The position numbers and the translations under genes are program-made. Positions 1 through 47,076 of a stretch of DNA of 64,000 nt are shown one piece after another. The DNA comes from an uncultured Candidatus Saccharibacteria bacterium. Lineage in GTDB: Bacteria > Patescibacteriota > Minisyncoccia > Phycocordibacterales > PCTT01. The notes beneath the pieces are model-generated. The model saw only the letters and a program-made list of their open reading frames with translations, was not told the origin of the DNA and did no database searches. The number at the start of each line of letters is the position of its first letter. Within the stretch, counting starts at the first letter, position 1. Where the stretch lies: assembly GCA_964566505.1 (NCBI GenBank), contig CAZMIM010000001.1, forward strand, positions 65,140 through 129,139, read 5' to 3'.

Positions 1-1115
1 GAGCGCAAATCATTTGCATGATTTAACAGAACAAAGATGGGTGTGTTAATTGCAGCCCATGAATATGCACCTCCTCTCTTTCCTTTTCTTGGGAAAAAGT
101 CTATTTGTCCATTTTTTAAAAATTCTTCAAAAACATCCTTGTATACTCCCCCCATTTTCTCTAGTGCATTTGAGAAAATTTTGATTGAGTCTTCTGCAGA
201 AAATTTTCTCTTGATTTTCCCGACTGGCGCATGTCTATCAACATAATAAAAATCTTTCAAACCAGTCATTTTCTTTTTCAGGCGGAAAAACTTTTTACTT
301 GCCGAGTAGTTACCAGCCACAGCATCTCGCAAAGCAAATACAACATCTTTGTCCATTTCATCCCCCTTCATTCTTTCTTCCAGAAGATAAGTATAACCTC
401 GTAAATTATCTTCAATTTTTTTGTTTGTTATAAGTGCATTTATTTCACTTTCAGCAAAATCAGTGGTTTCTTCCAACAAATTATCAAGGAGCTCTCTAAT
501 CTTTCTTCTATCTTTTGTATTCAATTTTGTGAGTTTAGAAGACGCTTCTGTTAAAGAGAGCTTCTCCCCTTTAAAAGTTATAGTTTTTTTGTGTAGAGAT
601 TTTTCTCTTCCTTGTGTCCACATACTACTACTTACGCCAGACTTTAGATTGAGAATCTTTTCTTCATCTTCAGACAAAAGATATTTTGTGTTTTCAAAAA
701 AGTTCTCAAGTAGATATTTATACTCTTTTAGATTGGGGTCTTTTAAAAACTTTTTCTGATTTGCTTTTGTTACATCTTTAAAAGACACGTTATAAAAAGT
801 AATATTGTTATATGCCTTGCGAAGCCGCTCGGAAAACAAATTGATTTTTGATTTTATTTTTGTATTAGTGCTGTCCAAATCCTCACTAAAATGTAAATAC
901 ATCATTGGACGTGGAAGTTCAAAATGTTTTTCTCTCTCTTGCATTACCTTTTTTAGCTCTTTTGCGTCTGTAAGATACTTGCGATTGTTTTTATACTTTT
1001 TCGCAAAAGATGAATATGCACGTTCAATTTTTTGTACATCTTTTTCGAGTTGTGGGTCATCTATTGATTTATACAACCGCTTAAGATCCCATTCTGTTTT
1101 GTAACCTTTTTTCAT
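1..1115 (-). CDS. pepF: Oligoendopeptidase F (M3B family), N-terminal part. The gene continues past the window start, which is why it is absent from the ORF track.
   Basis: Manual minus-strand translation from ATG at 1115..1113 gives an uninterrupted frame to position 1: MKKGYKTEWDLKRLYKSIDDPQLEK...GKRGGAYSWAAINTPIFVLLNHANDL, a PepF-like N-terminus with the GKRxGAYS motif. The plus-strand ORFs listed in this region are low-complexity antisense. Confidence 0.8.
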   Translation of the reverse strand, partial: MKKGYKTEWDLKRLYKSIDDPQLEKDVQKIERAYSSFAKKYKNNRKYLTDAKELKKVMQEREKHFELPRPMMYLHFSEDLDSTNTKIKSKINLFSERLRKAYNNITFYNVSFKDVTKANQKKFLKDPNLKEYKYLLENFFENTKYLLSEDEEKILNLKSGVSSSMWTQGREKSLHKKTITFKGEKLSLTEASSKLTKLNTKDRRKIRELLDNLLEETTDFAESEINALITNKKIEDNLRGYTYLLEERMKGDEMDKDVVFALRDAVAGNYSASKKFFRLKKKMTGLKDFYYVDRHAPVGKIKRKFSAEDSIKIFSNALEKMGGVYKDVFEEFLKNGQIDFFPRKGKRGGAYSWAAINTPIFVLLNHANDLR

Positions 1116-3483: not shown

Positions 3484-3510
3484 GTTTGGGAAGGTCAGAC
3501 CTTCCCAAAC
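3484..3510. repeat. REP-like palindrome, family 1 (GTTTGGGA-N11-TCCCAAAC)
   Basis: gtttgggaaggtcagaccttcccaaac; perfect palindrome. Confidence 0.9.
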
Positions 3511-5213: not shown

Positions 5214-5711
5214 TTATTGATCGTTCTCTGTTTCTTCTACGACCATCTCATCAACGTCTGTATTTCCATCTGCCGGCATTCCCATTGATGCGTCTCCATT
5301 AGACTCTACAATAATCAAATTGATTTTCTTTCCGTTATAAGTCGCATCTACTGTAGCTTGCTCACTAGCACCTACAAGAATACGAAATTCCTTAGGAGTA
5401 ATCACTTGTGCACACATTACATCTTCTGCTGGAGGTGTTACCACAAACGAAAGAGTGATTTGCTCTGGATATGACTCACGAACAAGAGCTTCTGTATAAA
5501 GCTCGTAACATGGGTTTGGAAATTCAATAACCCCTGAATATTCGTGCAAATTATCAGTATATACAAAATCAGCAACAATCTCTGCTGGCATGTATGACAT
5601 TTTGTCGTGATCTTTTTCGGCTTTATCTTCAAAACTCGTATCTGCAACAAGCATTCCGAAAATCACAACCAATACAATTATTAAAACATTTGTGAGTAAA
5701 GATGTTTTCAT
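5214..5711 (-). CDS. Hypothetical exported protein
   Basis: Signal-peptide-like N-terminus when started at MKTSLLTNVLIIVLVVIFG; no domain recognised. Confidence 0.45.
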   Translation of the reverse strand: MKTSLLTNVLIIVLVVIFGMLVADTSFEDKAEKDHDKMSYMPAEIVADFVYTDNLHEYSGVIEFPNPCYELYTEALVRESYPEQITLSFVVTPPAEDVMCAQVITPKEFRILVGASEQATVDATYNGKKINLIIVESNGDASMGMPADGNTDVDEMVVEETENDQ

Positions 5712-8858: not shown

Positions 8859-9350
8859 TTATTCTGCTGATTCTTCAGTTGGAGTTTCTCCAGTAGCCTC
8901 TTCTACTGGCGCCTCCTCAGCTGGTGTTTCCTCTACAGGATCTTCTTCTGCTGGCGCTTCCTCGGCAGGAGTTTCTTCTGAAGGTGTTTCCTCAGCCAGA
9001 CTCTCGTCCTGAGTAGCCTCTGGAGCTTCTGCTGGAGTCTCTTCTGCCGGTGTTTCCTCTGGCTTCTCGCTTACAATAGGAGATTTCTTTGGTAGAACAT
9101 TCTTGGCCTTTCCTTCGATGATTCCCTCTTTTACCAAAAGGTTGTGAACTGTATCAGAAAGCTGTGCACCTACTGACATCCAGTGCTTTACTCTATCACC
9201 CTTAATCTCACGCGTATCTGTTCGCGCATCATATGAACCAAGGTTCTCAATATATTTACCGCTCTTAGGACCACGATGTTTTTCTGTAACCACCACTCGA
9301 TATGATGGATCGTGCTTTCGCCCTACTCGCTTTAATCTAATTTTTAACAT
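8859..9350 (-). CDS. rpsP: 30S ribosomal protein S16 with a long acidic Glu/Thr/Pro/Ala-rich repetitive C-terminal extension
   Basis: MLKIRLKRVGRKHDPSYRVVV is the canonical S16 N-terminus; the C-terminus carries EETPAEE-type repeats encoded by an imperfect tandem DNA repeat. Confidence 0.9.
   Translation of the reverse strand: MLKIRLKRVGRKHDPSYRVVVTEKHRGPKSGKYIENLGSYDARTDTREIKGDRVKHWMSVGAQLSDTVHNLLVKEGIIEGKAKNVLPKKSPIVSEKPEETPAEETPAEAPEATQDESLAEETPSEETPAEEAPAEEDPVEETPAEEAPVEEATGETPTEESAE
8870..9012. repeat. Imperfect tandem repeat (period ~45 bp) encoding the acidic tail of S16
   Basis: Repeating units ctggcgcctcctcagctggtgtttcctc... / ctggcgcttcctcggcaggagtttcttc... Confidence 0.6.
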
Positions 9351-9419: not shown

Positions 9420-11354
9420 ATGAGAGAAACTCCACATACTGGAAGCACAATAGAAGGCAAGCTACAGACCACGTCACGAGGCGTGGGCTATCTTTCTTAT
9501 GACGAAGAGGCAAAAGATATAGAAATCCCAGAAGACAAGACGTACACAGCACTTCACGGAGACACTGTCGTGGTGCGTATTACACACAGTGACAGTGAGC
9601 GTGTGTATGGAGAAGTAATAAAAGTATTAGAGCGTGGTGCAAAACTTTTCTCTGGAACACTTGAGCAAGAGGCTGGGCACTTCTTTCTAATGACAGACAA
9701 CCATCGAATTCACCGGGATATTCTTGTGGCACCAGATGAGCGACTAAAAGAAGGATACAAAGCAGTGGTACGCTTCCTTTCTTGGAACACTACACACGAT
9801 GACCCTAAAGGAGAGCTTGTGTCTATTTTGGGTAGAAAGGGAGAACACGAAGCAGAAATGCAATCAATTATCGTGGGGCGTGGGATTGTTTACGACTTCC
9901 CTGTTGAAGTAGAAAAAGAAGCAAAAGAAATCAAAGCAAACGAAGCAAAAATCTTTCAAGATGCAGAAAACGACCCTCGCCGAAAAGATATCCGAGACAT
10001 TCCTACATTCACCATCGACCCAGACAGTGCAAAAGACTTTGATGATGCTCTTTCTATTCGAACACTACAAAATGGAAACCTGGAGATTGGTATTCATATT
10101 GCTGATGTATCTCACTATGTACAAGAAGGAAGTGCGCTAGACCAAGAAGCACAATCACGAGGATTTTCTACATACCTAGTGGATAGAACCATCCCGATGC
10201 TTCCTGAAGTACTTTCAAACGACCTTTGTAGTCTCAACCCGCATGTCGACCGACTCGCCTTTTCTGCAATATTTGAAATGACTCATAGTGGACAAGTAGA
10301 GAGCTCTTGGTATGGAAAAACAATCATTCACTCAGACAAACGGTTTACATACGAAAATGCACAAGAACAGATTGACGCTGGAGATGGTGAATACTCAGAG
10401 CCACTAATAACTCTAAATGGAATAGCAAAAACACTGCGAGCACGAAGATTTTCAAAAGGTGCAGTGGACTTCTCTGATGACGAAGTAAAGTTTGAGCTCA
10501 ATGACAAGGGCGAAGTAATGCGTGTGTATAAAAAAGAGCGGCTTGATACTCACAAACTTGTGGAAGAGTTTATGCTTCTTGCTAACCGCTCTGTAGCAGA
10601 GAAAATAGAAAAACTGTGTGAAAACTCAGGCCACGATCACCTTTTTGTATACAGAATCCACGACCTACCAGATAGAGAAAAACTTTCCGAGCTTGGCACA
10701 TTTCTTAAAGCTCTTGGATACCGATTTGAGGTGCCAAATGAAGTAAGCGGAACAGACCTAAACAAACTACTAGAGCAAGTGAAGGACAAACCAGAGGAAG
10801 GTTTGGTAAATACAGCGCTTATTCGCTCTATGGCAAAGGCTGTATACTCTACCGCTAACAATGGACACTTTGGGCTGGCATTTGAGCACTACACACACTT
10901 CACATCGCCTATCCGTAGATACCCTGACCTTATTGTGCACCGACTTCTATTTGCACATCTTCATAACGAGAATATTACTCAAAGAGAGATAGACCTCTAT
11001 GAAAGCATTATCTCTAAATCAACTGACAAAGAGATTAATATTATGCAAGCAGAGCGTGAGAGTATTAAATACAAGCAAGTAGAGTTCCTAAAAGATCGTG
11101 TGGGTGAGACATTTGATGTATTAGTAACAGGAGTTTCAGACTTTGGACTCTTTGTGGAAGAGAAAGAAACACGAGCACAGGGACTCATTGCTATTAGAAA
11201 TCTAGGAAATGATTTCTTTGAGCTTCGAGAGAAACAATTTGCAATAGTTGGTAAAAGCAGTGGTCAAAAGTTTACACTCGGGCAAACACTCAAAGCAAAG
11301 CTCACTGGAGCAGACCTAGACAAGCGTCAGCTCGACTTCCGTCTCCAAAACTAA
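9420..11354 (+). CDS. rnr: Ribonuclease R (RNase II/R family, with C-terminal S1 domain)
   Basis: RNB-domain motifs (DPDSAKDFDDALS, HFTSPIRRYPDL) and a C-terminal S1-like region. Confidence 0.9.
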   Translation: MRETPHTGSTIEGKLQTTSRGVGYLSYDEEAKDIEIPEDKTYTALHGDTVVVRITHSDSERVYGEVIKVLERGAKLFSGTLEQEAGHFFLMTDNHRIHRDILVAPDERLKEGYKAVVRFLSWNTTHDDPKGELVSILGRKGEHEAEMQSIIVGRGIVYDFPVEVEKEAKEIKANEAKIFQDAENDPRRKDIRDIPTFTIDPDSAKDFDDALSIRTLQNGNLEIGIHIADVSHYVQEGSALDQEAQSRGFSTYLVDRTIPMLPEVLSNDLCSLNPHVDRLAFSAIFEMTHSGQVESSWYGKTIIHSDKRFTYENAQEQIDAGDGEYSEPLITLNGIAKTLRARRFSKGAVDFSDDEVKFELNDKGEVMRVYKKERLDTHKLVEEFMLLANRSVAEKIEKLCENSGHDHLFVYRIHDLPDREKLSELGTFLKALGYRFEVPNEVSGTDLNKLLEQVKDKPEEGLVNTALIRSMAKAVYSTANNGHFGLAFEHYTHFTSPIRRYPDLIVHRLLFAHLHNENITQREIDLYESIISKSTDKEINIMQAERESIKYKQVEFLKDRVGETFDVLVTGVSDFGLFVEEKETRAQGLIAIRNLGNDFFELREKQFAIVGKSSGQKFTLGQTLKAKLTGADLDKRQLDFRLQN

Positions 11355-11381
11355 GTTTGGGAGAGTCAGACTCTCCCAAAC
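11355..11381. repeat. REP-like palindrome, family 1
   Basis: gtttgggagagtcagactctcccaaac, between convergent rnr and the LOG gene. Confidence 0.9.
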
Positions 11382-15353: not shown

Positions 15354-15380
15354 GTTTGGGGAAGTCAGACTTCCCCAAAC
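15354..15380. repeat. REP-like palindrome, family 1 (variant)
   Basis: gtttggggaagtcagacttccccaaac. Confidence 0.9.
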
Positions 15381-38257: not shown

Positions 38258-38800
38258 TTATGCTTCGTCTTCTTCGTCGGTTGCGTCGCCCCCCTCTACT
38301 GCTGGTTGCTCAACTGAGATAAGCTCTACTTGGAATGTAAGTGTTGCGTTTGGTGGGATTGGCCCAATACCGTTCTCTCCATATGCAAACTCTGGAGCAA
38401 GTACAAGTGTTCGCTCTCCTCCCGCCTTCATTCCTCGAAGACCAAGATCGAATCCGTCTATTACTTCTCCTGAACCTACTGTAAATGAGAATTCTGCTCC
38501 TCGAGCTCGTGATTCATCAAATACTGTTCCGTCCTCTAGCATTCCAACGTAGTGAAGTGATACTACAGATCCTTCTGTAACCTCATCTCCCTCGCCTTCT
38601 ACTGTGTCAGACATCATTATTCCTCCATCAAAAAGCTCTTGCATTTCCATGTTTGTATCAAAATCAAGTGCTGACGCACCTTGTGATATTCCTAGTTGTG
38701 CAAAGAAACCACCAAATGCACCACCTGAAGCAAGCAATACACCTACAACAACAAACGCTGCAGCAACGGCAATTCCTTGATGTAATTTCTCTCGTTCCAT
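38258..38800 (-). CDS. FKBP-type peptidyl-prolyl cis-trans isomerase with an N-terminal TM anchor
   Basis: FKBP_C motifs (HYVGMLEDGTVFDSS, GSGEVIDGFD, LVLAPEFAYG); start at MEREKLHQ. Confidence 0.85.
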   Translation of the reverse strand: MEREKLHQGIAVAAAFVVVGVLLASGGAFGGFFAQLGISQGASALDFDTNMEMQELFDGGIMMSDTVEGEGDEVTEGSVVSLHYVGMLEDGTVFDESRARGAEFSFTVGSGEVIDGFDLGLRGMKAGGERTLVLAPEFAYGENGIGPIPPNATLTFQVELISVEQPAVEGGDATDEEDEA

Positions 38801-39136
38801 AATAAAAGTGTTTAATTTATAACTAATGTTATTGTACAACGCAAAAGCATATAAGCAAAAACCCTCTGGGGAAAAGAAAAAGACCGCCGAAGCGGTCCTT
38901 TTCAAGTGTACCTCTCAGATGTCCGGGGACATCAAGTTGTACAAGGGTTAGTATATAGATACTTAAAATAATGTCAAACCCTTATTTTCAAAAGACAACA
39001 TTCTTTATAAAAAGTCAAAATTTCTTCAGAAAATGAAAAACGCCACGAAAGTGACGTTTTTCAGTGTATTCCCCAGATGTCCGAAGACAACAAGGAATAC
39101 ACTGACAATTTATCAAAAGCCTATTCCCCTGTCAAG

Positions 39137-39449
39137 CAAAATATAAAAAACGCACCACGAGGACTTACAGGGCCCAAGTGGTGCGCGATTCCGTTACGCA
39201 CGTCGGCACCGGCTCGAAAGCCACTGCTGTCGTATGCGCCACGGGGTTTGCGCTCGGAGCTCCTTACGAAGCTGGCGCATATCCGTCGCACGCTGGTCAT
39301 GAAGAGTCTTCAAACGACTCGGCGTAGTTTGAAGAACTCCGGTTACTCCCTCAGCACCGTGACTAGAGCGAGACGGACGGTCGGTTTGGATTACGGCCTT
39401 CATTATCTTAGGTTTGTTACCTTAAAGAAAAACGAAGGCGATTTGTCCA
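39137..39449 (-). ncRNA. Candidate structured non-coding RNA (~310 nt) of unknown class
   Basis: Minus-strand consensus promoter TTGACA(39484..39479)-17-TATTAT(39461..39456); GC-rich (~52%) stem-rich body (UUCG tetraloop ggcTTTCGagcc, hairpin gaagaCtcttc); intrinsic terminator gcaccacN19gtggtgc plus T-run ending near 39137. The overlapping ORFs are low-complexity. Confidence 0.45.
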
Positions 39450-39455
39450 ATATTA

Positions 39456-39484
39456 ATAATATCATGTTTACTTGATTTTGTCAA
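39456..39484 (-). promoter_or_regulatory. Sigma70-like promoter for the candidate ncRNA
   Basis: TTGACA-17 nt-TATTAT on the minus strand. Confidence 0.45.
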
Positions 39485-39563
39485 TTTATAAAAATACAAA
39501 AAAGGCCCTCCAAGTAGTGTTGTAAACACTGCCTGGAGGGCCAAATGAAAAAGAACAATGAGA

Positions 39564-40556
39564 TCAAAGACGTGGGAACAAATCGAACTCGATATAGTCC
39601 GCCATTTCTTTAAACTCTGGTGTAAGGTGCACATCAGGAACCCATGCAATCCCCTTGTCGATGAGGTTTATTTCCTCAACAACTCGAGCGCCGGGAATGA
39701 GTGATCCATCTTCTGAATCACGCTCATGCCCCATAATGAGCAGTATGTCACACAGCCTAAGCATTGGTGACACGTCATGAGATATAACGAATATCGTATT
39801 ATGTGTATCGAGATTCGAAACCTCCCTGATGATTTCTACAGCCTTCGTGCGCGACAATGGATCAAGGTTGGCAAATGGTTCATCCATCACCATTACAAGA
39901 TCTTCACCGTGCGCAAGAATTTGCTGAAGAATTGCGGCTCTCTGTCTCTGTCCACCTGACAATTCTGCAGGATACATCTGAGTTGTGGAGCCGATTCCAA
40001 ATCGATCCATATAACTCAAAGCATCATTTTTTACAGCTGCACGAGCTCTTTTGTTGAATGATGCACGCTTAAACGGATTATATAATCCGGATACACGACT
40101 TCTCATTCGTTTTGCTCTTTGCATACCTGCGACAACTAAGTTGTCCAGAACTGTTCTGTGGTCAAACATCGGATATTGCTGTAAAACGAAACCTACTCGG
40201 CCTCGCTTGAGTGGAACATGGTCTGGACCATACGTTATGGAGCCAGAGTCATACCCAGTCAGACCAGCAACACGACGCATCATTTGAGTCTTACCTACAC
40301 CCGAAGGAGCAAGTATTCCTACAATCTGACCCTCTATCCGATTGTGACGTTCGATGTTTCTCACTTGGAAACTAGCGTCTCGCAAAACACTCTCGCCTCT
40401 ATAGCTGACATTGAGCCCTTCTACAGTGATGACAGGTTCTGCAAAGCGATATTTCCTCCCCTCATTTCCAAGGGGATATTGATTGACGTTCATAGTCATT
40501 ACCCCTTGAGCTTGAGAGTTGACCATCTGAAGCCTTTGGTTCGAATCTTTCCCCAT
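39564..40556 (-). CDS. ABC transporter ATP-binding protein (NitT/TauT family-like)
   Basis: Walker A GILAPSGVGKT, signature LSGGQRQR, Walker B LVMVMDEPFANLD. Confidence 0.85.
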   Translation of the reverse strand: MGKDSNQRLQMVNSQAQGVMTMNVNQYPLGNEGRKYRFAEPVITVEGLNVSYRGESVLRDASFQVRNIERHNRIEGQIVGILAPSGVGKTQMMRRVAGLTGYDSGSITYGPDHVPLKRGRVGFVLQQYPMFDHRTVLDNLVVAGMQRAKRMRSRVSGLYNPFKRASFNKRARAAVKNDALSYMDRFGIGSTTQMYPAELSGGQRQRAAILQQILAHGEDLVMVMDEPFANLDPLSRTKAVEIIREVSNLDTHNTIFVISHDVSPMLRLCDILLIMGHERDSEDGSLIPGARVVEEINLIDKGIAWVPDVHLTPEFKEMADYIEFDLFPRL

Positions 40557-41395
40557 AGATAATCAAAAAGAAGTCCTGCAAACAAAAGCAAAAACATGAT
40601 GGCAAACAAATTTGAAAGCTTCATGAACTTGTCTTCGATTGAGACAAGAACCCCTACTCCACCGCCACTGAGAACCAGTTTTTCTACTGATGTGAGCATT
40701 GCCCAACCAAATCCAAATACGGCACCAAAATTGGTAAGCGCAAGAGGAAATGTACCCAGAATAACGACTTCATAGAGAACTCTCCATTCACTCATTCCTA
40801 GAGTGTATGCGTGTTCATACAAATACTGAAACTGCTCGTCCACAACTCCATTCATTCCGTGTATGAAAAATACACTCAAAATGAAAGTCATGATAGAGAT
40901 TTTCAGTGACTCACTCCCCCCAAATTCAGTCATGAATATGAGGAGAAGAATTGCTATTGGTATGAAACGAAGAAGTGCGACAATCCTGCTTATAGGCCTG
41001 AATGCCGCAAGTCCTCTCAAGTACACAATGGAGAGCGAAAGGATGAAAGATATCACTGAAGATATGAACATGAGCTTGAAACTTTTTAAAAGATCCCATG
41101 CGAGACCTTTTTGAGTCCACAACTCAATTAGTCCATACCAAACGTCCAAAGGACGTGGGATTATTTGTGCCGCACCAAATACCCACCACAAACCAATCGC
41201 AAGAGCATACGAGAATGTAATACTCCATTCAACAGGTTTGGGTAAATCTTGGTTTGGAACAAACAACATCTTCAGAAGAGATATCACCCGATCAACAATC
41301 ACGGTTTTTTGCGGTTTTTTCATAACCACTCTCTCCTTTGAATAAGGGCCCGACTCGACTAATGTCTGAGTCGGGCCCTTGGTTAAAAAGAACAA
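40499..41395 (-). CDS. ABC transporter permease (BPD_transp_1; NitT/TauT-type)
   Basis: Six TM helices and an EAA-like loop; overlaps the ATPase gene start. Confidence 0.8.
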   Translation of the reverse strand: MFFLTKGPTQTLVESGPYSKERVVMKKPQKTVIVDRVISLLKMLFVPNQDLPKPVEWSITFSYALAIGLWWVFGAAQIIPRPLDVWYGLIELWTQKGLAWDLLKSFKLMFISSVISFILSLSIVYLRGLAAFRPISRIVALLRFIPIAILLLIFMTEFGGSESLKISIMTFILSVFFIHGMNGVVDEQFQYLYEHAYTLGMSEWRVLYEVVILGTFPLALTNFGAVFGFGWAMLTSVEKLVLSGGGVGVLVSIEDKFMKLSNLFAIMFLLLFAGLLFDYLWGKIRTKGFRWSTLKLKG

Positions 41396-41407
41396 ACGAC
41401 AGACAGG

Positions 41408-43345
41408 CTAGTTACCAATCCTGATTTCCACCCGACGATTCTTCGCCCGATTTTCAGCAGTGTTGTTATTGGCATTCGGATCAACCGGTTGCCTTTGGCC
41501 CATACCCGCAACACGAGTACGAGTAGTGTTGAAGTTCACTGGATCCTTGGTGTAGAACCACGCTTGGATAGTCTGCGCACGGCGCAGTGCCAAGCCGTCG
41601 TTAAATGCGGGATCACCAGTGTTGTCGGTATGTCCGACAAACTCAATCAAGTAACTCTGGTTCAAGCTCGTGAGCTGCTGATACAACCCATCGAGAACCG
41701 GAATCGATTCGGGCGCGAGCTCAGCGCTCCCAGACCGAAATTTGATTGAATCAAAATCACCACTCGCGCGAACGTTGGTAATGGCGGCATTCGGGTCATA
41801 ACTGCGCGACAACTTGACCGCAAGGTCAGGTCGTCGGTTTGCTACAGCTTCCAAATATCGTGTATTAACAGCTTCACTGTAAGGCACGTATTCTCCGTAT
41901 TCATTCGGATAGTTAAGTGCCAACACGTCACCATAACGTTCGTATGTGTTTTTATACAAACTCACGTTGTATCCAACACCAAAGAGCTCAAGCGTATGTG
42001 CAAGCGAGTGAACCTGTGATCCACCAACCGACACATTTTGACTCAATCGAGAATCAAAGATTTCTGTGCCTGTGTGCATTTCTGCCCAATAAGCACCGTC
42101 CTTCTGCTTGAGAACTTTTGCAGTAACTTCACTTGCCTCGAGCAAAGCTTCGCTGTTTGTTAGAACCTGATCGTTTGCTTCCGAAGAAGCTTCAATAATA
42201 GCTTCAATAACACCTGGGTTATCTCTCGCCCATCCACGATGCACAAGCAAAATGCTCGGCATCTGACCAGGATTGTCTCTTGTAGACCACATAGTCACCA
42301 CACCTCCACGCTGTTCAACAACGTTACGGTCTTCCGGTGTCCATACGGATACAGAGTCAACACAAACAGTCCGACGTTCTCCCGTCAACTCTGCTTCACC
42401 GGCAGAATTAACAGTTACAATCGGGCGCTCTTCGCAACGCTCCGAGACATAAGCCTTCGTAGCGTCAGAGTTTGAAGTTGTGGCATAGAAGTTGATACAA
42501 TCCGGATTGTATGTTTCAGGATCCGGGTTGATACAAACCCCATTGAGACTTGCCCAATCTACAACAATATTCTGATCATCGTCCATGATCACAGTTGCGG
42601 TGAGGAGGCCTCGCGCATTCCGTGAATCACGTAATACTTCAGGAGGAGCCATGAACTGATCTTCGCCATAGCTCCGTCCAAAAGAATGGACAATATCAAA
42701 ATTGTTTTCTTCAGGAAGTCTCTCAACTCCACCTGCGATTGCGGTTGTGTAGAAGGTTCCTCCTCCACCCATCACAACAATCGCAGCCGCTCCTTCGGTT
42801 GGATACATATCACCTTCGGCATAACGCTGAGCAAACAATACTGCGTTCTTGATCATCTGCGGTACATCATCAAGTACCTTGACTTCAAGACGAATATTGT
42901 CAGCACGGTTACGGCGAAGTGCCTGCTCCATCAAACTTCCACGAGCGGTAATAGCACCGCCATCACGTGATTCCTGGGCAGCACCATTGGCTGCAAAGAA
43001 GCCCTTCTGAGCCCCCCACGGAATCACCTCGATAGGCATTGTGTAATCTGCGCTCATGGGAGTAGTGCCTGTCCACAAAGAACGAGGTTCTACGGTATAA
43101 GGCACCGTGCTCACATCCTGGTTAATAACCTGGACTTCTTCATGAACACGGGAAGCCGCACGATTCTTCTCAGGCAACATCGACTTGGCAAAGCCAAGAA
43201 TGCTGTCACCAAAGAAAAAAGTGACGGCGACCAAAACCAGCAGTCCAAGGACTACTTTGGTTTTGGTAGGAATATCAACAGTGGTAGACATGTGAGTGTC
43301 CTCTTGTTTCGTGTGTGTTTCGTGTGTGCGACGTATATCAGTCAA
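41408..43345 (-). CDS. Membrane-anchored putative substrate-binding protein (~450 aa) fused to a C-terminal OmpA/MotB-like peptidoglycan-binding domain
   Basis: N-terminal TM segment; C-terminal ~110 aa FRSGSAELAPESIPVLDGL...IEFVGHTDNTGDPAFNDGLALRRAQTIQAWF...RRVEIRI is a canonical OmpA_C domain; sits directly upstream of the permease/ATPase. Confidence 0.55.
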   Translation of the reverse strand: MTDIRRTHETHTKQEDTHMSTTVDIPTKTKVVLGLLVLVAVTFFFGDSILGFAKSMLPEKNRAASRVHEEVQVINQDVSTVPYTVEPRSLWTGTTPMSADYTMPIEVIPWGAQKGFFAANGAAQESRDGGAITARGSLMEQALRRNRADNIRLEVKVLDDVPQMIKNAVLFAQRYAEGDMYPTEGAAAIVVMGGGGTFYTTAIAGGVERLPEENNFDIVHSFGRSYGEDQFMAPPEVLRDSRNARGLLTATVIMDDDQNIVVDWASLNGVCINPDPETYNPDCINFYATTSNSDATKAYVSERCEERPIVTVNSAGEAELTGERRTVCVDSVSVWTPEDRNVVEQRGGVVTMWSTRDNPGQMPSILLVHRGWARDNPGVIEAIIEASSEANDQVLTNSEALLEASEVTAKVLKQKDGAYWAEMHTGTEIFDSRLSQNVSVGGSQVHSLAHTLELFGVGYNVSLYKNTYERYGDVLALNYPNEYGEYVPYSEAVNTRYLEAVANRRPDLAVKLSRSYDPNAAITNVRASGDFDSIKFRSGSAELAPESIPVLDGLYQQLTSLNQSYLIEFVGHTDNTGDPAFNDGLALRRAQTIQAWFYTKDPVNFNTTRTRVAGMGQRQPVDPNANNNTAENRAKNRRVEIRIGN

Positions 43346-44432
43346 GGTGCTTTAGGTATTTACTACCCCCTTGACGATTACGCCCCTTGTTTTGGGTTTT
43401 CTGTTCATCAACATCATCAGGAAGAGGGATTTCAATCACTCCTCTAGAGGATTTGTCGATGGATATTGCTTTTTTCCCTTCTCCTCTTGCGATATCTGGA
43501 ATTTCCAGACCTGAATCCATCAGCATAGCAATCAAGGACGGGTCATCGTATGACATTGGGTTTTCAGCATTACCGAACCCTACGATAACCTTTTCTTGAA
43601 TACCAATGAGAGCTTCGATTTTTGCCGCATCAGCTTTAAATTGCTGAAACGCCATGTCCTCGGTAGCCATCAAAGACTGATTTTCACCCAGAGTATCAAG
43701 ATCGGGGTCTAATGATAATTCCCCAACGATGTCTTGAATTACGTCTTGTACCTCACCAGTGGTTTTTAAGCCACTAGCAGTTACCTTAAGTCCTTCAAGA
43801 GATACTTCTGTGTGAGTTTCGAGATGCTTGAGAAGGAGAAGCATATTTTCAATCTCCTCTTTTTTCTCCTCAAACCCACGAATAGATTCAACACGCGGCT
43901 GAAGTCGCCTTTTCAGGCTTTTGAGAACACTAGGATTAGCTTTTTCTTGCTTCTCCATTTCAGTCTTCAGTTCAAGGTATACCTCGTCCCGAACACTAAT
44001 GTCCTCCTTCAGCCTTGTGTTTACTTTTGTGAGAGCAACCTCCTCCAAACGACGAATACCTGAAGTGATTTTACGAAGTCGCTTTTCGTGCGCCTCAATA
44101 ATTTCATCAGGTGTTCTATTTGGTGTTGGTTTTTCTACAACTTCTTCCTCAGTAAGACCAGCGATTTTGCGAACAAACTGTAGATACAGCATCGCAAAAT
44201 GAGTCAGTGCATCTTGTGCACTGCCATGTTGTTCGCTTGTTCTCTGAAAGAAGTAGGTTGCAAGTGCAACAAGTAGGGTCAAAACTCCAGCGATCTGAAA
44301 CCCGGAAAGGCTCGCAACAAGAACCCAGAGTATCTGGATCATTACGAGCGGGAAAAGAATAGCAACACTGATCCCAACGTTTCGCTCCCGCTTATCACGA
44401 AAGACCCGCCGACGATCTTTTTTGCTACTCAT
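43338..44432 (-). CDS. Hypothetical membrane protein: basic N-terminus, two TM helices, long cytoplasmic coiled-coil domain
   Basis: ATG 44432 with GGAGG RBS, 1 nt after the stop of the upstream gene (translational coupling). Confidence 0.5.
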   Translation of the reverse strand: MSSKKDRRRVFRDKRERNVGISVAILFPLVMIQILWVLVASLSGFQIAGVLTLLVALATYFFQRTSEQHGSAQDALTHFAMLYLQFVRKIAGLTEEEVVEKPTPNRTPDEIIEAHEKRLRKITSGIRRLEEVALTKVNTRLKEDISVRDEVYLELKTEMEKQEKANPSVLKSLKRRLQPRVESIRGFEEKKEEIENMLLLLKHLETHTEVSLEGLKVTASGLKTTGEVQDVIQDIVGELSLDPDLDTLGENQSLMATEDMAFQQFKADAAKIEALIGIQEKVIVGFGNAENPMSYDDPSLIAMLMDSGLEIPDIARGEGKKAISIDKSSRGVIEIPLPDDVDEQKTQNKGRNRQGGSKYLKHLD

Positions 44433-44433
44433 A

Positions 44434-45270
44434 TTATTCCTCCGAATTTCCGAGGTTGAAGTCCGACTCAATCTCGTTTATACGAGCAGCCATGAGCTTT
44501 GCAGCTGCTTGGAATTGCATGCTCGTATTTACGGTATCAGCCTGGCGTAAAGAAAGTTCATCTTCGAGCTCAGGTAGCCCAGCGTCAATTTGTGACGCTT
44601 CAGCAACCAACTTTTCGGATGTTTTTTTCGCCTCATCAATCAAGCGCTTGGCTTCAGCTTCTGCCTCTGCCACAACCTCTTGCGCCCTGAGGCGCTTCGA
44701 TGACGCGTCTTCCTTTGCTCTTGCAATAGCTCGTTCCGCTTCTGCTTCACGTTTTGCAAGCGCTTTCAGTGCCTCATCACCAAAAAGAGACTTTTCTTGA
44801 TCCAAGCGCGCACGATGTGCGCCAAGATCTTCTGCAAGCTCCTTTTTGCCAATGTTTCGTTTTGCAAGCATCTTCATTACCAAGGCAACGAGTGCTTCTG
44901 GTCCAGCAGCAAGCTCTGCGAACTCCTTTTGCACATCAAGCAGTTGCTCGACAGGCGTTGGTGGAGTAGCGGGGTCAGATTCAAAAACAGTCTCCGCCAG
45001 ACTAACCAGCAAAGGATTGTTTTCGAGAACATTCCCCGCACCTTCAGCAAGCTCTGCATGTGTCTGTGTCAAAACTTCATCAGAAGAAGACGAGTCCACA
45101 CTCGGTGCTTTGTGCTGAAGATCTCGCAGTATCTGCTCAACCTCATCAGCTGCCGAAGAGGACTCTCCTCCAGCGGCATCTGGCTCCAGATTAGAACTTT
45201 CGTTCTCTCTGATAATAGTCGGTCCCCATCCTTCAGTGAGGAAAGAGACAAACTTGCTTTTTGGTGCCAT
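44434..45270 (-). CDS. Hypothetical acidic coiled-coil protein (278 aa) with EA-repeat region
   Basis: AEAERAIARAKEDA ... VVAEAEAEAKRLIDEAKK coiled-coil/EA repeats; GC about 55-60%. Confidence 0.5.
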   Translation of the reverse strand: MAPKSKFVSFLTEGWGPTIIRENESSNLEPDAAGGESSSAADEVEQILRDLQHKAPSVDSSSSDEVLTQTHAELAEGAGNVLENNPLLVSLAETVFESDPATPPTPVEQLLDVQKEFAELAAGPEALVALVMKMLAKRNIGKKELAEDLGAHRARLDQEKSLFGDEALKALAKREAEAERAIARAKEDASSKRLRAQEVVAEAEAEAKRLIDEAKKTSEKLVAEASQIDAGLPELEDELSLRQADTVNTSMQFQAAAKLMAARINEIESDFNLGNSEE

Positions 45271-45364
45271 TTCGATTTTGCGTTTGTGTTAAGTATTGCA
45301 CGAAAAAGTTTTCCGTAAGGTACTTAACTGTTTCGTGTGTGCTCAGTTCTCAATATTTAGAAGA

Positions 45365-45682
45365 CTAATCTTCATCAAATCTGAGATTTCTAGCACGATG
45401 TGCAGTCCAACCCTCCTTTCTTCTTTCAAATTGGGAGAGTACAACGAAACTTTTCTTTTCAGGCAACGGGGTTTTTTCATCATCAGGAAACCATTCCGAC
45501 GAAAGAAACGTGAGAGAACCGAGATGATTTAGGCTTGAATCTTCAGGCCAACAAACAAATCGTTTCTGTTCACCATCTTTTCCGTGAGGAAAAATATCTC
45601 CAATAACTGCTATTACCTCGTTACACGGAATTTCGTTGCTCTGCACATCATTAGCAGTACTTCTGCTAGCTTTATGCATCAC
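45365..45682 (-). CDS. Hypothetical protein (105 aa)
   Basis: ORF only; no domain recognised. Confidence 0.3.
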   Translation of the reverse strand: MMHKASRSTANDVQSNEIPCNEVIAVIGDIFPHGKDGEQKRFVCWPEDSSLNHLGSLTFLSSEWFPDDEKTPLPEKKSFVVLSQFERRKEGWTAHRARNLRFDED

Positions 45683-45852
45683 ATTAGTCCGTGGATTTTA
45701 GTGAAAAGTTTTGTGAAAGATTTTTTTAGGTTCAATATCCTCCTTTTTGTCAATAAACAAAAAACTAGTTATGTGATTGTCAATGAGCATCTTGATTTCT
45801 GAGTTTACAAGAACACAGAAAAAGATATTCGCGACAGTCTAACATAATAAAG

Positions 45853-45881
45853 TTGATATGTCAATATATGTGTGCTATAAT
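45853..45881 (+). promoter_or_regulatory. Near-consensus sigma70 promoter TTGATA-17-TATAAT
   Basis: TTGATA (45853-45858), 17-nt spacer, TATAAT (45876-45881), ~20 nt upstream of the ORF at 45902. Three TGTCAAT motifs lie between 45746 and 45865. Confidence 0.5.
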
Positions 45882-45901
45882 ACAGATAGAACAAAACAAC
45901 G

Positions 45902-46164: not shown

Positions 46165-46191
46165 GTTTGGGAGAGTCAGACTCTCCCAAAC
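46165..46191. repeat. REP-like palindrome, family 1
   Basis: gtttgggagagtcagactctcccaaac upstream of tonB. Confidence 0.9.
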
Positions 46192-46274
46192 TACTTCCCT
46201 TTTTAATATAAATAGGTGTATTCTATATATAGACGCACTCGCACAATCCATTCACTAAATACGTGAGGTATCTT

Positions 46275-46934
46275 ATGGCACTCAAGAAGTCGCCAAAAGC
46301 CGACCTTAAAAAACGTTATCCGCTTTTTCTGGAAATCGGCATAGTGTTCACTCTCGGTATCCTTATTGTTGCGTTTCGACTCGACATGAGTGCTGAGAAC
46401 GATTTCAACATCGACCTTCCTGATCAGGAAGTGGTTCAGATGGAAGAAATCACCCAAACAGAACAGGTACAGAAGCCACCGCCCCCGCCACGTCCGCCAG
46501 TACCTGTAGAGGTTCCCAATGACGAGGTGCTCGATGAAATCGAGATTGACCTGGGTGATATCTTTGACCTTGATGAAGAACTACCGCTTCCGCCCCCTCC
46601 TCCACCCGCAGTGGAAGAAGAGGAAGAAGAGCCGGAAATCTTTGTCATCGTCGAGCAAATGCCCGAACTGATTGGAGGTCTTGCAGAACTCCAAAAAAAG
46701 ATTACCTATCCAGAAATCGCCAAAAAAGCTGGCGTGGAAGGTCGGGTATATCTTCAGTTTGTGGTAGATGAACAAGGCAATGTCCAAGACCCTGTGGTTA
46801 CTCGTGGCATCGGTGCAGGATGTGATGAAGAAGCAATCAAGGCAATCCTGACTGCAAAGTTCAAACCGGGCATACAGAGAGGAAAGGCCGTTAAGGTCAA
46901 ATACAGCCTTCCTATCACCTTCAAGCTCAAGTAG
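46275..46934 (+). CDS. tonB: Energy transducer TonB (N-terminal TM anchor, Pro-rich spacer, TonB_C domain of the FCB/Bacteroidota type)
   Basis: IFVIVEQMPELIGGLAELQKKITYPEIAKKAGVEGRVYLQFVVDEQGNVQDPVVTRGIGAGCDEEAIKAILTAKFKPGIQRGKAVKVKYSLPITFKL; PPPPPRPPVPVEVP linker; AGGT RBS before ATG 46275. Confidence 0.85.
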   Translation: MALKKSPKADLKKRYPLFLEIGIVFTLGILIVAFRLDMSAENDFNIDLPDQEVVQMEEITQTEQVQKPPPPPRPPVPVEVPNDEVLDEIEIDLGDIFDLDEELPLPPPPPPAVEEEEEEPEIFVIVEQMPELIGGLAELQKKITYPEIAKKAGVEGRVYLQFVVDEQGNVQDPVVTRGIGAGCDEEAIKAILTAKFKPGIQRGKAVKVKYSLPITFKLK

Positions 46935-47019: not shown

Positions 47020-47076
47020 GTTTGGGAAGGTCTGACCTTCCCAAACTAAGAGTGTGAGAGTCAGACTCTCCCAACC
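47020..47076. repeat. REP-like palindrome, family 1: one full copy plus an adjacent half copy
   Basis: gtttgggaaggtctgaccttcccaaac, then gagagtcagactctcccaac. Confidence 0.85.

Follow-up and report, generated by a model that had tools for sequence, protein, structure and literature searches.

On the minus strand of a 64-kb stretch of Patescibacteria DNA (64,000 nucleotides (nt) of contig CAZMIM010000001.1, the whole of which we call the window), a GC-rich segment of about 305 nt, here named RNA1, reads as a genuine, independently transcribed, lineage-specific and highly structured noncoding RNA (ncRNA) gene. We hold this reading, drawn from the sequence, with about even confidence. The original prediction had flagged the interval 39035-39484 as a single transcript, a stand-alone structured ncRNA of unknown class. 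The promoter, the terminator, the fold and a null result against Rfam all fit that description for RNA1; the interval itself does not hold together as one unit, since it also takes in part of an independent small RNA (sRNA) gene, RNA2, which has its own promoter. RNA1, RNA2 and RNA3 are the names we give to the three promoter-terminator units that lie upstream of a gene for an FKBP-type isomerase. The genomes of Patescibacteria, also known as the candidate phyla radiation (CPR), are small and gene-dense. To our knowledge, almost nothing is known of their regulatory or structural RNAs apart from the universal ones, and the full-text literature on structured RNAs of CPR and Parcubacteria yielded nothing relevant.

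The RNA1 unit is bounded by clear signals of transcription (Table 1). The promoter, TTGACA-17-TATTAT, stands where it had been predicted (39484..39456, minus strand) and matches the sigma-70 consensus at 11 of 12 positions; a 20-kb control stretch contains only two sites of that quality. We took transcription to start ~7 nt past the −10 element. The GC contrast noticed earlier is equally plain, as 150-nt windows reach 0.57–0.63 GC at RNA1 versus 0.32–0.35 in the flanks. The 235-nt core (39151-39385) is 60.4% GC and ranks first among the 12,753 overlapping windows of that size in the 64 kb (mean 41.3%, sd 5.1), and all those with at least 56% GC fall within the core region. At the 3′ end, the arms GCGCACCAC...GUGGUGCG(U) (39186..39150), interrupted by the 4-bp inner helix, form an intrinsic terminator that a pattern scan missed because its loop exceeds 8 nt. 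The hairpin and U-run of the original prediction are thus real, but the run of six U lies at 39150..39145, about 10 nt from the position claimed (~39137).

RNA1 is also insulated from its neighbors. The minus-strand order is the gene for an ABC-transporter ATPase, RNA1, RNA2, RNA3, the FKBP-type isomerase, Tgt and UvrB. The inverted repeat of the ATPase-gene terminator has 18-nt arms that are 89% complementary and is predicted to shield the RNA1 unit from upstream read-through. With a terminator at the end of the upstream operon and a separate promoter for the next gene downstream, RNA1 is closed off on both sides, and it combines the promoter, the intrinsic terminator and the insulation that mark a stand-alone ncRNA gene. 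The second terminator-like hairpin of the flagged interval (39035-39065) exists at 39063..39034, but it ends RNA2 rather than RNA1.

RNA1 is predicted to fold far more stably than expected from its composition. A 316-nt stretch has a folding energy of −127.6 kcal/mol compared with −97.1 ± 5.3 for dinucleotide shuffles (z = −5.7), and a second shuffle run on the transcript gave z = −6.0 for the minus strand and −3.7 for the plus strand, in favor of the minus strand. Ten coding controls of equal size range from +2.7 to −3.8. Both the minimum free energy (MFE) and the centroid structures consist of five domains in series with unpaired ends. Domain 1 is followed by a three-way junction (domain 2), in which GGUGCUGAGGGAGUAACC forms a hairpin and GAGUUCUUCAAAC pairs with GUUUGAAGACUC in a long helix, then by two tetraloop-capped hairpins (domains 3 and 4), and domain 5 is the intrinsic terminator itself. 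GNRA or UNCG tetraloops cap two of the six hairpin loops. The sequence features noted in the original prediction, the hairpin with the UUCG loop among them, are all present.

In the mechanism that we propose, RNA1 would be transcribed from the TG-extended sigma-70 promoter, would end at the GC-rich hairpin with its six U, and would probably be stable and abundant. Our guess is that it works in trans through the shape of its fold, binding proteins or serving as a scaffold, and not as an antisense base-pairing regulator. We favor a shape-dependent role because pairing takes up about two thirds of the bases, internal single-stranded runs in the MFE structure reach 7 nt at most, and no extended complementarity to gene starts was seen within the window.

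Several points weigh against taking RNA1 as a functional ncRNA gene. None of our searches recovered a homologue, and hence neither covariation nor conservation supports the fold. The closest relatives available lack RNA1 at the syntenic position, which makes a housekeeping role unlikely and a neutral or recent origin possible. The coding controls reach z = −3.8, so the folding signal is in part not unique, although a value of −6 is. Lastly, we only infer the protein-binding or scaffold action.

The search for relatives was anchored on Tgt. The window protein is 69% identical to Tgt of a Candidatus Paceibacteria metagenome-assembled genome (MAG; locus L001) and 65% identical to that of a Candidatus Campbellbacteria MAG (L002). 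The best non-self match in a collection of 5.8 billion proteins is only 71% identical, and the lineage of the window is therefore poorly sampled; the window belongs to the Parcubacteria/Paceibacteria group of the Patescibacteria. We assembled 80 Tgt-anchored Parcubacteria loci from genome contigs, the closest metagenomic relatives (L081-L085) and loci with homologues of the island described below, and speak of closest relatives where Tgt is 65–71% identical. Neither nhmmer nor sensitive blastn matched RNA1 to any of these 91 loci, and a single-sequence covariance model of domain 2 had no match but itself across 1.06 Mb of related loci. The plasmid and phage collections gave no DNA match by blastn. 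Exact-word scans found no occurrence in viral contigs, and the first word was absent from metagenome contigs.

A second 20-mer matched nine metagenome loci, none of them extending past ~26 nt. Eight of the nine are out-of-frame chance matches in GC-rich contigs. The 20-mer lies in the UUCG hairpin GTGGCTTTCGAGCCGGTGCC (39195-39214, minus strand), which in one frame encodes GFRAGA(D), and over 24 nt the region agrees letter for letter with the conserved receiver-domain motif of a response-regulator gene on an unrelated contig from a metagenome (L096:8826-8849). We judge this match a coincidence because no RNA1 frame gives a Response_reg signal in Pfam at E ≤ 10, and on the same result RNA1 was rejected as a response-regulator pseudogene. 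A template of a diversity-generating retroelement, or an internal repeat, was likewise discarded, as the window holds no second RNA1 copy, and so was an expanded paralogue of RNA2, to which RNA1 has no alignable similarity.

The closest relatives reveal what surrounds RNA1 in this lineage. In L081-L085, the order is TonB_C (on the opposite strand), small RNA, FKBP, Tgt and UvrB, with no RNA1 and only 150–400 nt between TonB_C and FKBP. L001 and L002 keep the small RNA, FKBP and Tgt, again with no RNA1, and no TonB_C was identified upstream. From the position of TonB_C in the window, ~6–7 kb have been added between this gene and the small RNAs. The added DNA is an island that encodes two proteins of unassigned function (278 and 377 aa), a 645-aa OmpA-domain protein, an ABC permease and the ABC ATPase. 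Its genes are 41–50% GC. Apart from its own copy, only 25 homologues of the OmpA-domain protein turned up, at 30–37% identity, and homologues of the ATPase are 41–42% identical. Those of the OmpA-domain protein come from contigs of 29–36% GC (L086-L091) and sit in an operon of similar gene order, which suggests that the island was acquired horizontally. In most of these contigs a beta-barrel-like protein, and not an RNA1-like sequence, follows the ATPase (152–153 aa in L087 and L090; L086 has a 257-aa protein). These post-ATPase proteins had no tblastn match in the window, RNA1 had no nhmmer match in the island-homologue loci, and no att-like direct repeats were found flanking the island. At least at this position, RNA1 is confined to the lineage of the window; it may have come in with the ~6–7-kb ABC-transporter island or arisen at its border.

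The same setting gives the best-supported alternative its footing, namely that the RNA1 core is a functionless relic of GC-richer foreign DNA, such as part of a gene that came in with the island, caught between an AT-rich promoter-like site and a hairpin with a T-run. We consider this unlikely, though it deserves real weight. RNA1 sits exactly at the edge of an island that is missing from the closest relatives, the ATPase and OmpA-like proteins of that island have distant homologues only, and RNA1 itself has none in any search made. The GFRAGAD peptide, encoded in one minus-strand frame by the 20-mer that specifies the receiver-domain motif in L096, would also suit decayed coding DNA. Against this, the minus-strand frames give no Pfam signal at E ≤ 10, HMMER and tblastn returned no usable similarity, and eight of the nine 20-mer matches are out of frame and due to chance. 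The island genes, moreover, are 41–50% GC and not 60%, and the homologous operons lie in contigs of 29–36% GC, with a beta-barrel-like protein and not RNA1 downstream of the ATPase. Unselected DNA would not be expected to keep a z of −6, tetraloop caps, an 11/12 promoter and a clean terminator at its borders.

A bolder version of the ncRNA reading is a long shot. In it, RNA1 would be the earliest known representative of a new RNA class, ~300 nt long and multi-domain, from an under-sampled lineage of Paceibacteria, for example a protein-scaffolding or catalytic RNA linked to the adjacent transporter island. Relatives would then have escaped the exact-word and synteny-limited searches through divergence or sparse sampling.

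That the locus is instead a small protein-coding gene seems very improbable. Both open reading frames (ORFs) listed in the original prediction are present, one of 132 aa on the plus strand and an arginine-rich one of 69 aa on the minus strand, but they find little company elsewhere. No Pfam family scores above threshold for any ORF or minus-strand frame, the nearest being a sub-threshold DUF2990 match of the 132-aa ORF (E 0.11). The large protein library (1.84 billion representatives) was searched exhaustively by HMMER with the 69-aa ORF only, which returned two weak matches, each split into four short stretches; no homologue or domain of the kind that identifies a protein-coding gene emerged. 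Tblastn of the ORFs against plasmids gave nothing usable, the sole protein match having E = 0.6. The RNA1 ORF sequences that we looked up are absent from the protein collection, in which three neighbors, all listed on a 283,212-bp NCBI contig and so apparently from the same source contig, are present. The predicted structure places the AUG of the 69-aa ORF inside the stem of domain 1, and the 132-aa ORF runs antisense across RNA2 and the promoters of both RNA2 and RNA1. One argument made earlier for a noncoding locus carries little weight here, namely the absence of ribosome-binding sites. Most real genes of the window have no recognizable Shine-Dalgarno sequence within 25 nt upstream (e.g. 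37034, 38220, 40526, 45270 and 50220), and a missing site is therefore no evidence against translation in this genome.

Downstream of RNA1, the two shorter units form a family that is the better-supported RNA discovery of the stretch. RNA2 and RNA3 are paralogues (79% identical over 38 nt by blastn) with the same fold, and RNA3 matches the family hidden Markov model (HMM) at E = 5.5e-13. Homologues lie just upstream of FKBP(-tgt-uvrB) in L081, L082-L085, L002 and L001, with family-HMM E-values of 1e-13 to 1e-21, and the family is duplicated in tandem in both the window and L001. With L081 as its only source sequence, a covariance model picks up both L001 copies, L082-L085, L002 and the window RNA2 at 45–67 bits, with RNA2 itself at 45 bits (E about 1e-7). 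The shared shape is a P1 stem around a UUCG-capped hairpin, an ACACUGRAA linker and the terminator. Compensatory double changes occur in 11 of 27 base pairs among six distinct sequences, with almost no broken pairs, in an alignment that was fitted to the model and so leans towards structure; RNAfold, run independently on each copy, gives the same two-hairpin shape. Outside the window, only the closest relatives (those with a Tgt identity of 65% or more) yielded members of the family, which has no credible Rfam counterpart at E ≤ 10 (38800-39700).

The promoters of this family bear on that of RNA1. TTGACA (TTGACG in L082) stands at the same upstream position in every copy, and a −10 element was scored for the two window copies. 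From these sequences, the TTGACA promoter type appears to be in use within the clade. The tandem sRNA genes and their promoter type suggest a native arrangement of the locus, which would lend indirect support to a functional RNA1 promoter. An TGTACAAT element resembling an extended −10 precedes the FKBP start in the window (~38815-38860), L081 (~9430-9450), L082 (~9200-9215) and L002 (~5320-5335), with no exact copy in L001. After the sRNA terminator, the window, L081 and L001 have an CTTTTCCCCA box. Judging by these elements, FKBP seems to have a promoter of its own, apart from the sRNA genes.

Table 1 Coordinates of RNA1 and of the features around it. Positions refer to the window unless a locus is named.
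Feature	Position	Strand	Details
RNA1 promoter, sigma-70-type	39456..39484	minus	−35 TTGACA 39484..39479; 17-nt spacer; TG-extended −10 TATTAT 39461..39456
RNA1, predicted ~305-nt transcript	39145..39449	minus	54% GC overall
RNA1 domain 1, AU-rich irregular hairpin	39386..39450	minus	65 nt; 37.5% GC; MFE positions 1-65
RNA1 domain 2, three-way junction	39281..39378	minus	98 nt, 37 base pairs
RNA1 domain 3, hairpin with GNRA tetraloop (GUAA)	39249..39279	minus	predicted fold
RNA1 domain 4, hairpin with UUCG tetraloop (GGCU-UUCG-AGCC)	39191..39244	minus	predicted fold
RNA1 intrinsic terminator	39145..39186	minus	8-9 bp GC-rich stem, internal loop, 4-bp inner helix, U6
69-aa ORF, arginine-rich	39403..39194	minus	from the ORF list
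RNA2 promoter	39107..39135	minus	TTGACA-17-TAAATT with TG; 10/12 matches
RNA2, ~74-nt two-hairpin sRNA	39030..39103	minus	terminator 39063..39034
RNA3 promoter	38977..38950	minus	TTGACA-16-TATACT
RNA3, ~75-nt RNA2 paralogue	38944..38870	minus	own terminator; just upstream of FKBP gene
RNA2/RNA3 homologues	L081:9250-9333; L082:8980-9062; L002:5187-5271; L001:348-454 and 572-678		upstream of FKBP
ABC-transporter ATPase gene	40556..39564	minus	own terminator downstream
ATPase-gene intrinsic terminator	39498..39542	minus	stem 39542..39504, then U-run (TTTTTT)
Island	~39564-45900		five-gene operon; absent from closest relatives; RNA1 at edge
TonB_C gene	46263..46934		~7 kb from RNA1 in window
27-nt palindrome copies	3484-3510, 11355-11381, 15354-15380, 46165-46191, 47020-47046, 50287-50313		all between long ORFs

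These separate promoters count against reading RNA1 as a cis-acting leader or attenuator, the terminator of which would gate read-through into the sRNA, FKBP, tgt and uvrB, and we regard such a role as highly improbable. RNA1 does share the orientation of the downstream genes, and its terminator could serve as an expression platform, with a 5-bp alternative pairing (GUGCG/CGCAC) possible upstream. Yet RNA2, RNA3 and, it seems, FKBP are each served by a separate promoter, that of FKBP being marked by TGTACAAT in the window and in three of the relatives, and the closest relatives carry the same downstream genes without RNA1. No riboswitch or leader family of Rfam matches RNA1 at E ≤ 10, and the T-box motif is absent from it.

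A separate repeat recurs elsewhere in the window. It is a perfect 27-nt palindrome, GTTTGGG-NNN-GTCTGAC-NNN-CCCAAAC, found in six copies and in none of 100 shuffles, with compensating stem variants (GAG/CTC, AAG/CTT and GAA/TTC). The copies at 3484 and 11355 were flagged as terminator-like, and two copies flank TonB_C. By its sequence, it is a putative repetitive extragenic palindromic (REP)-like or shared-terminator element.

RNA1 was also compared with the known RNA classes, including the Rfam scan for RNase P, transfer-messenger RNA (tmRNA), 6S and signal recognition particle (SRP) RNAs that had been suggested as a check. At gathering thresholds, Rfam 15 finds three tRNAs only in the whole window. 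At E ≤ 10, the 901 nt from 38800 to 39700 contain no credible match for RNA1, and the low-scoring matches (rimP leader, BSnc120, MicC, rsmX and others) fall only on the RNA2 and RNA3 terminators. RNA1 alone (321 nt), run with the laxest filters, gives zero matches at E ≤ 10. ARAGORN finds the three tRNAs and no tmRNA in the window. We further scanned RNA1 for the hallmark motifs of RNase P, tmRNA, SRP and T-box RNAs, allowing up to 2 mismatches. The conserved sequences of the RNase P P4 helix, CR-I GAGGAAAGUCC and CR-V ACAGAAnnnGGCUUA, are absent, and neither RNaseP_bact_a nor RNaseP_bact_b matches at the gathering score or at E ≤ 10, whether in the 901 nt or in RNA1 alone. The weak resemblance to type-B RNase P offered in the original prediction is accordingly unsupported. 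Neither the T-loop nor the 5′ GGGG motif of tmRNA occurs, and the SRP domain IV motifs GGAAGCAGCC and CAGGUC(A/C)GG are likewise missing; no model of the tmRNA clan matches, and the SRP models match neither the window nor RNA1 alone at E ≤ 10. There is no 6S match at E ≤ 10, and RNA1 consists of five serial domains with unpaired ends, unlike the 6S rod of ~180–200 nt with its paired ends and large central bubble. By these scans, RNA1 is none of RNase P, tmRNA, SRP and 6S RNA, the first three of which the original prediction had also been unable to match.

We give next to no credence to the idea that RNA1 is nonetheless a highly divergent copy of one of these four universal RNAs. In AT-rich genomes, housekeeping RNA genes typically show a similar size, a GC excess and a strong promoter, as RNA1 does, and Rfam places none of the four elsewhere in the 64-kb window. 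Such an RNA should, however, align with relatives that are 65–71% identical in Tgt, and the loci fetched contain nothing similar. The absent hallmark motifs and the complete lack of Rfam and ARAGORN matches point the same way, as do ends that remain unpaired, with no closing helix or rod of the kind seen in 6S or SRP RNA.

With RNA1 taken as an ncRNA gene, it and the two clade-conserved copies of the 75-nt sRNA would make up a small cluster of RNA genes upstream of FKBP-tgt-uvrB. As the strongest outlier of the 64 kb in both GC and folding, and with a consensus promoter, RNA1 would offer metatranscriptomic or co-culture studies an inexpensive and specific target. It is at present an orphan of a single genome and as yet opens or closes no larger question.

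Among the closest known systems, one lies next door. The RNA2/RNA3 family shares with RNA1 the strand, a TTGACA box followed ~16–17 nt on by a −10 element, an intrinsic terminator, a UUCG-capped hairpin and the tandem placing ahead of FKBP. Its members differ in being ~75 nt long with two hairpins, and conserved with compensatory changes, whereas RNA1 has ~305 nt, cannot be aligned with them and is absent from relatives. Bacterial RNase P RNA, of types A and B, is alike in its size range, GC-richness and possession of its own promoter, and the original prediction had noted a short resemblance at GUCACGGUGCUGAG; unlike it, RNA1 folds without a closing P1 or long-range helices and lacks CR-I and CR-V. 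The raiA motif, ROOL, GOLLD, OLE and HEARO RNAs are also a few hundred nt long, multi-domain and capped by GNRA or UNCG loops, with no assigned function. All five are Rfam families, none of which matches RNA1 even at E ≤ 10, and it is wide conservation and covariation that define them; for RNA1, no relative could be detected. Compared with typical base-pairing sRNAs, RNA1 is longer and more fully base-paired. It also resembles in outline the orphan bacterial ncRNA genes that appear as GC islands in AT-rich genomes. Those known rest on expression data or covariation, whereas RNA1 is known from sequence alone; like them, RNA1 has a sigma-70-type promoter, an intrinsic terminator, an intergenic position, a GC content far above background and a strong predicted structure without a conserved ORF.

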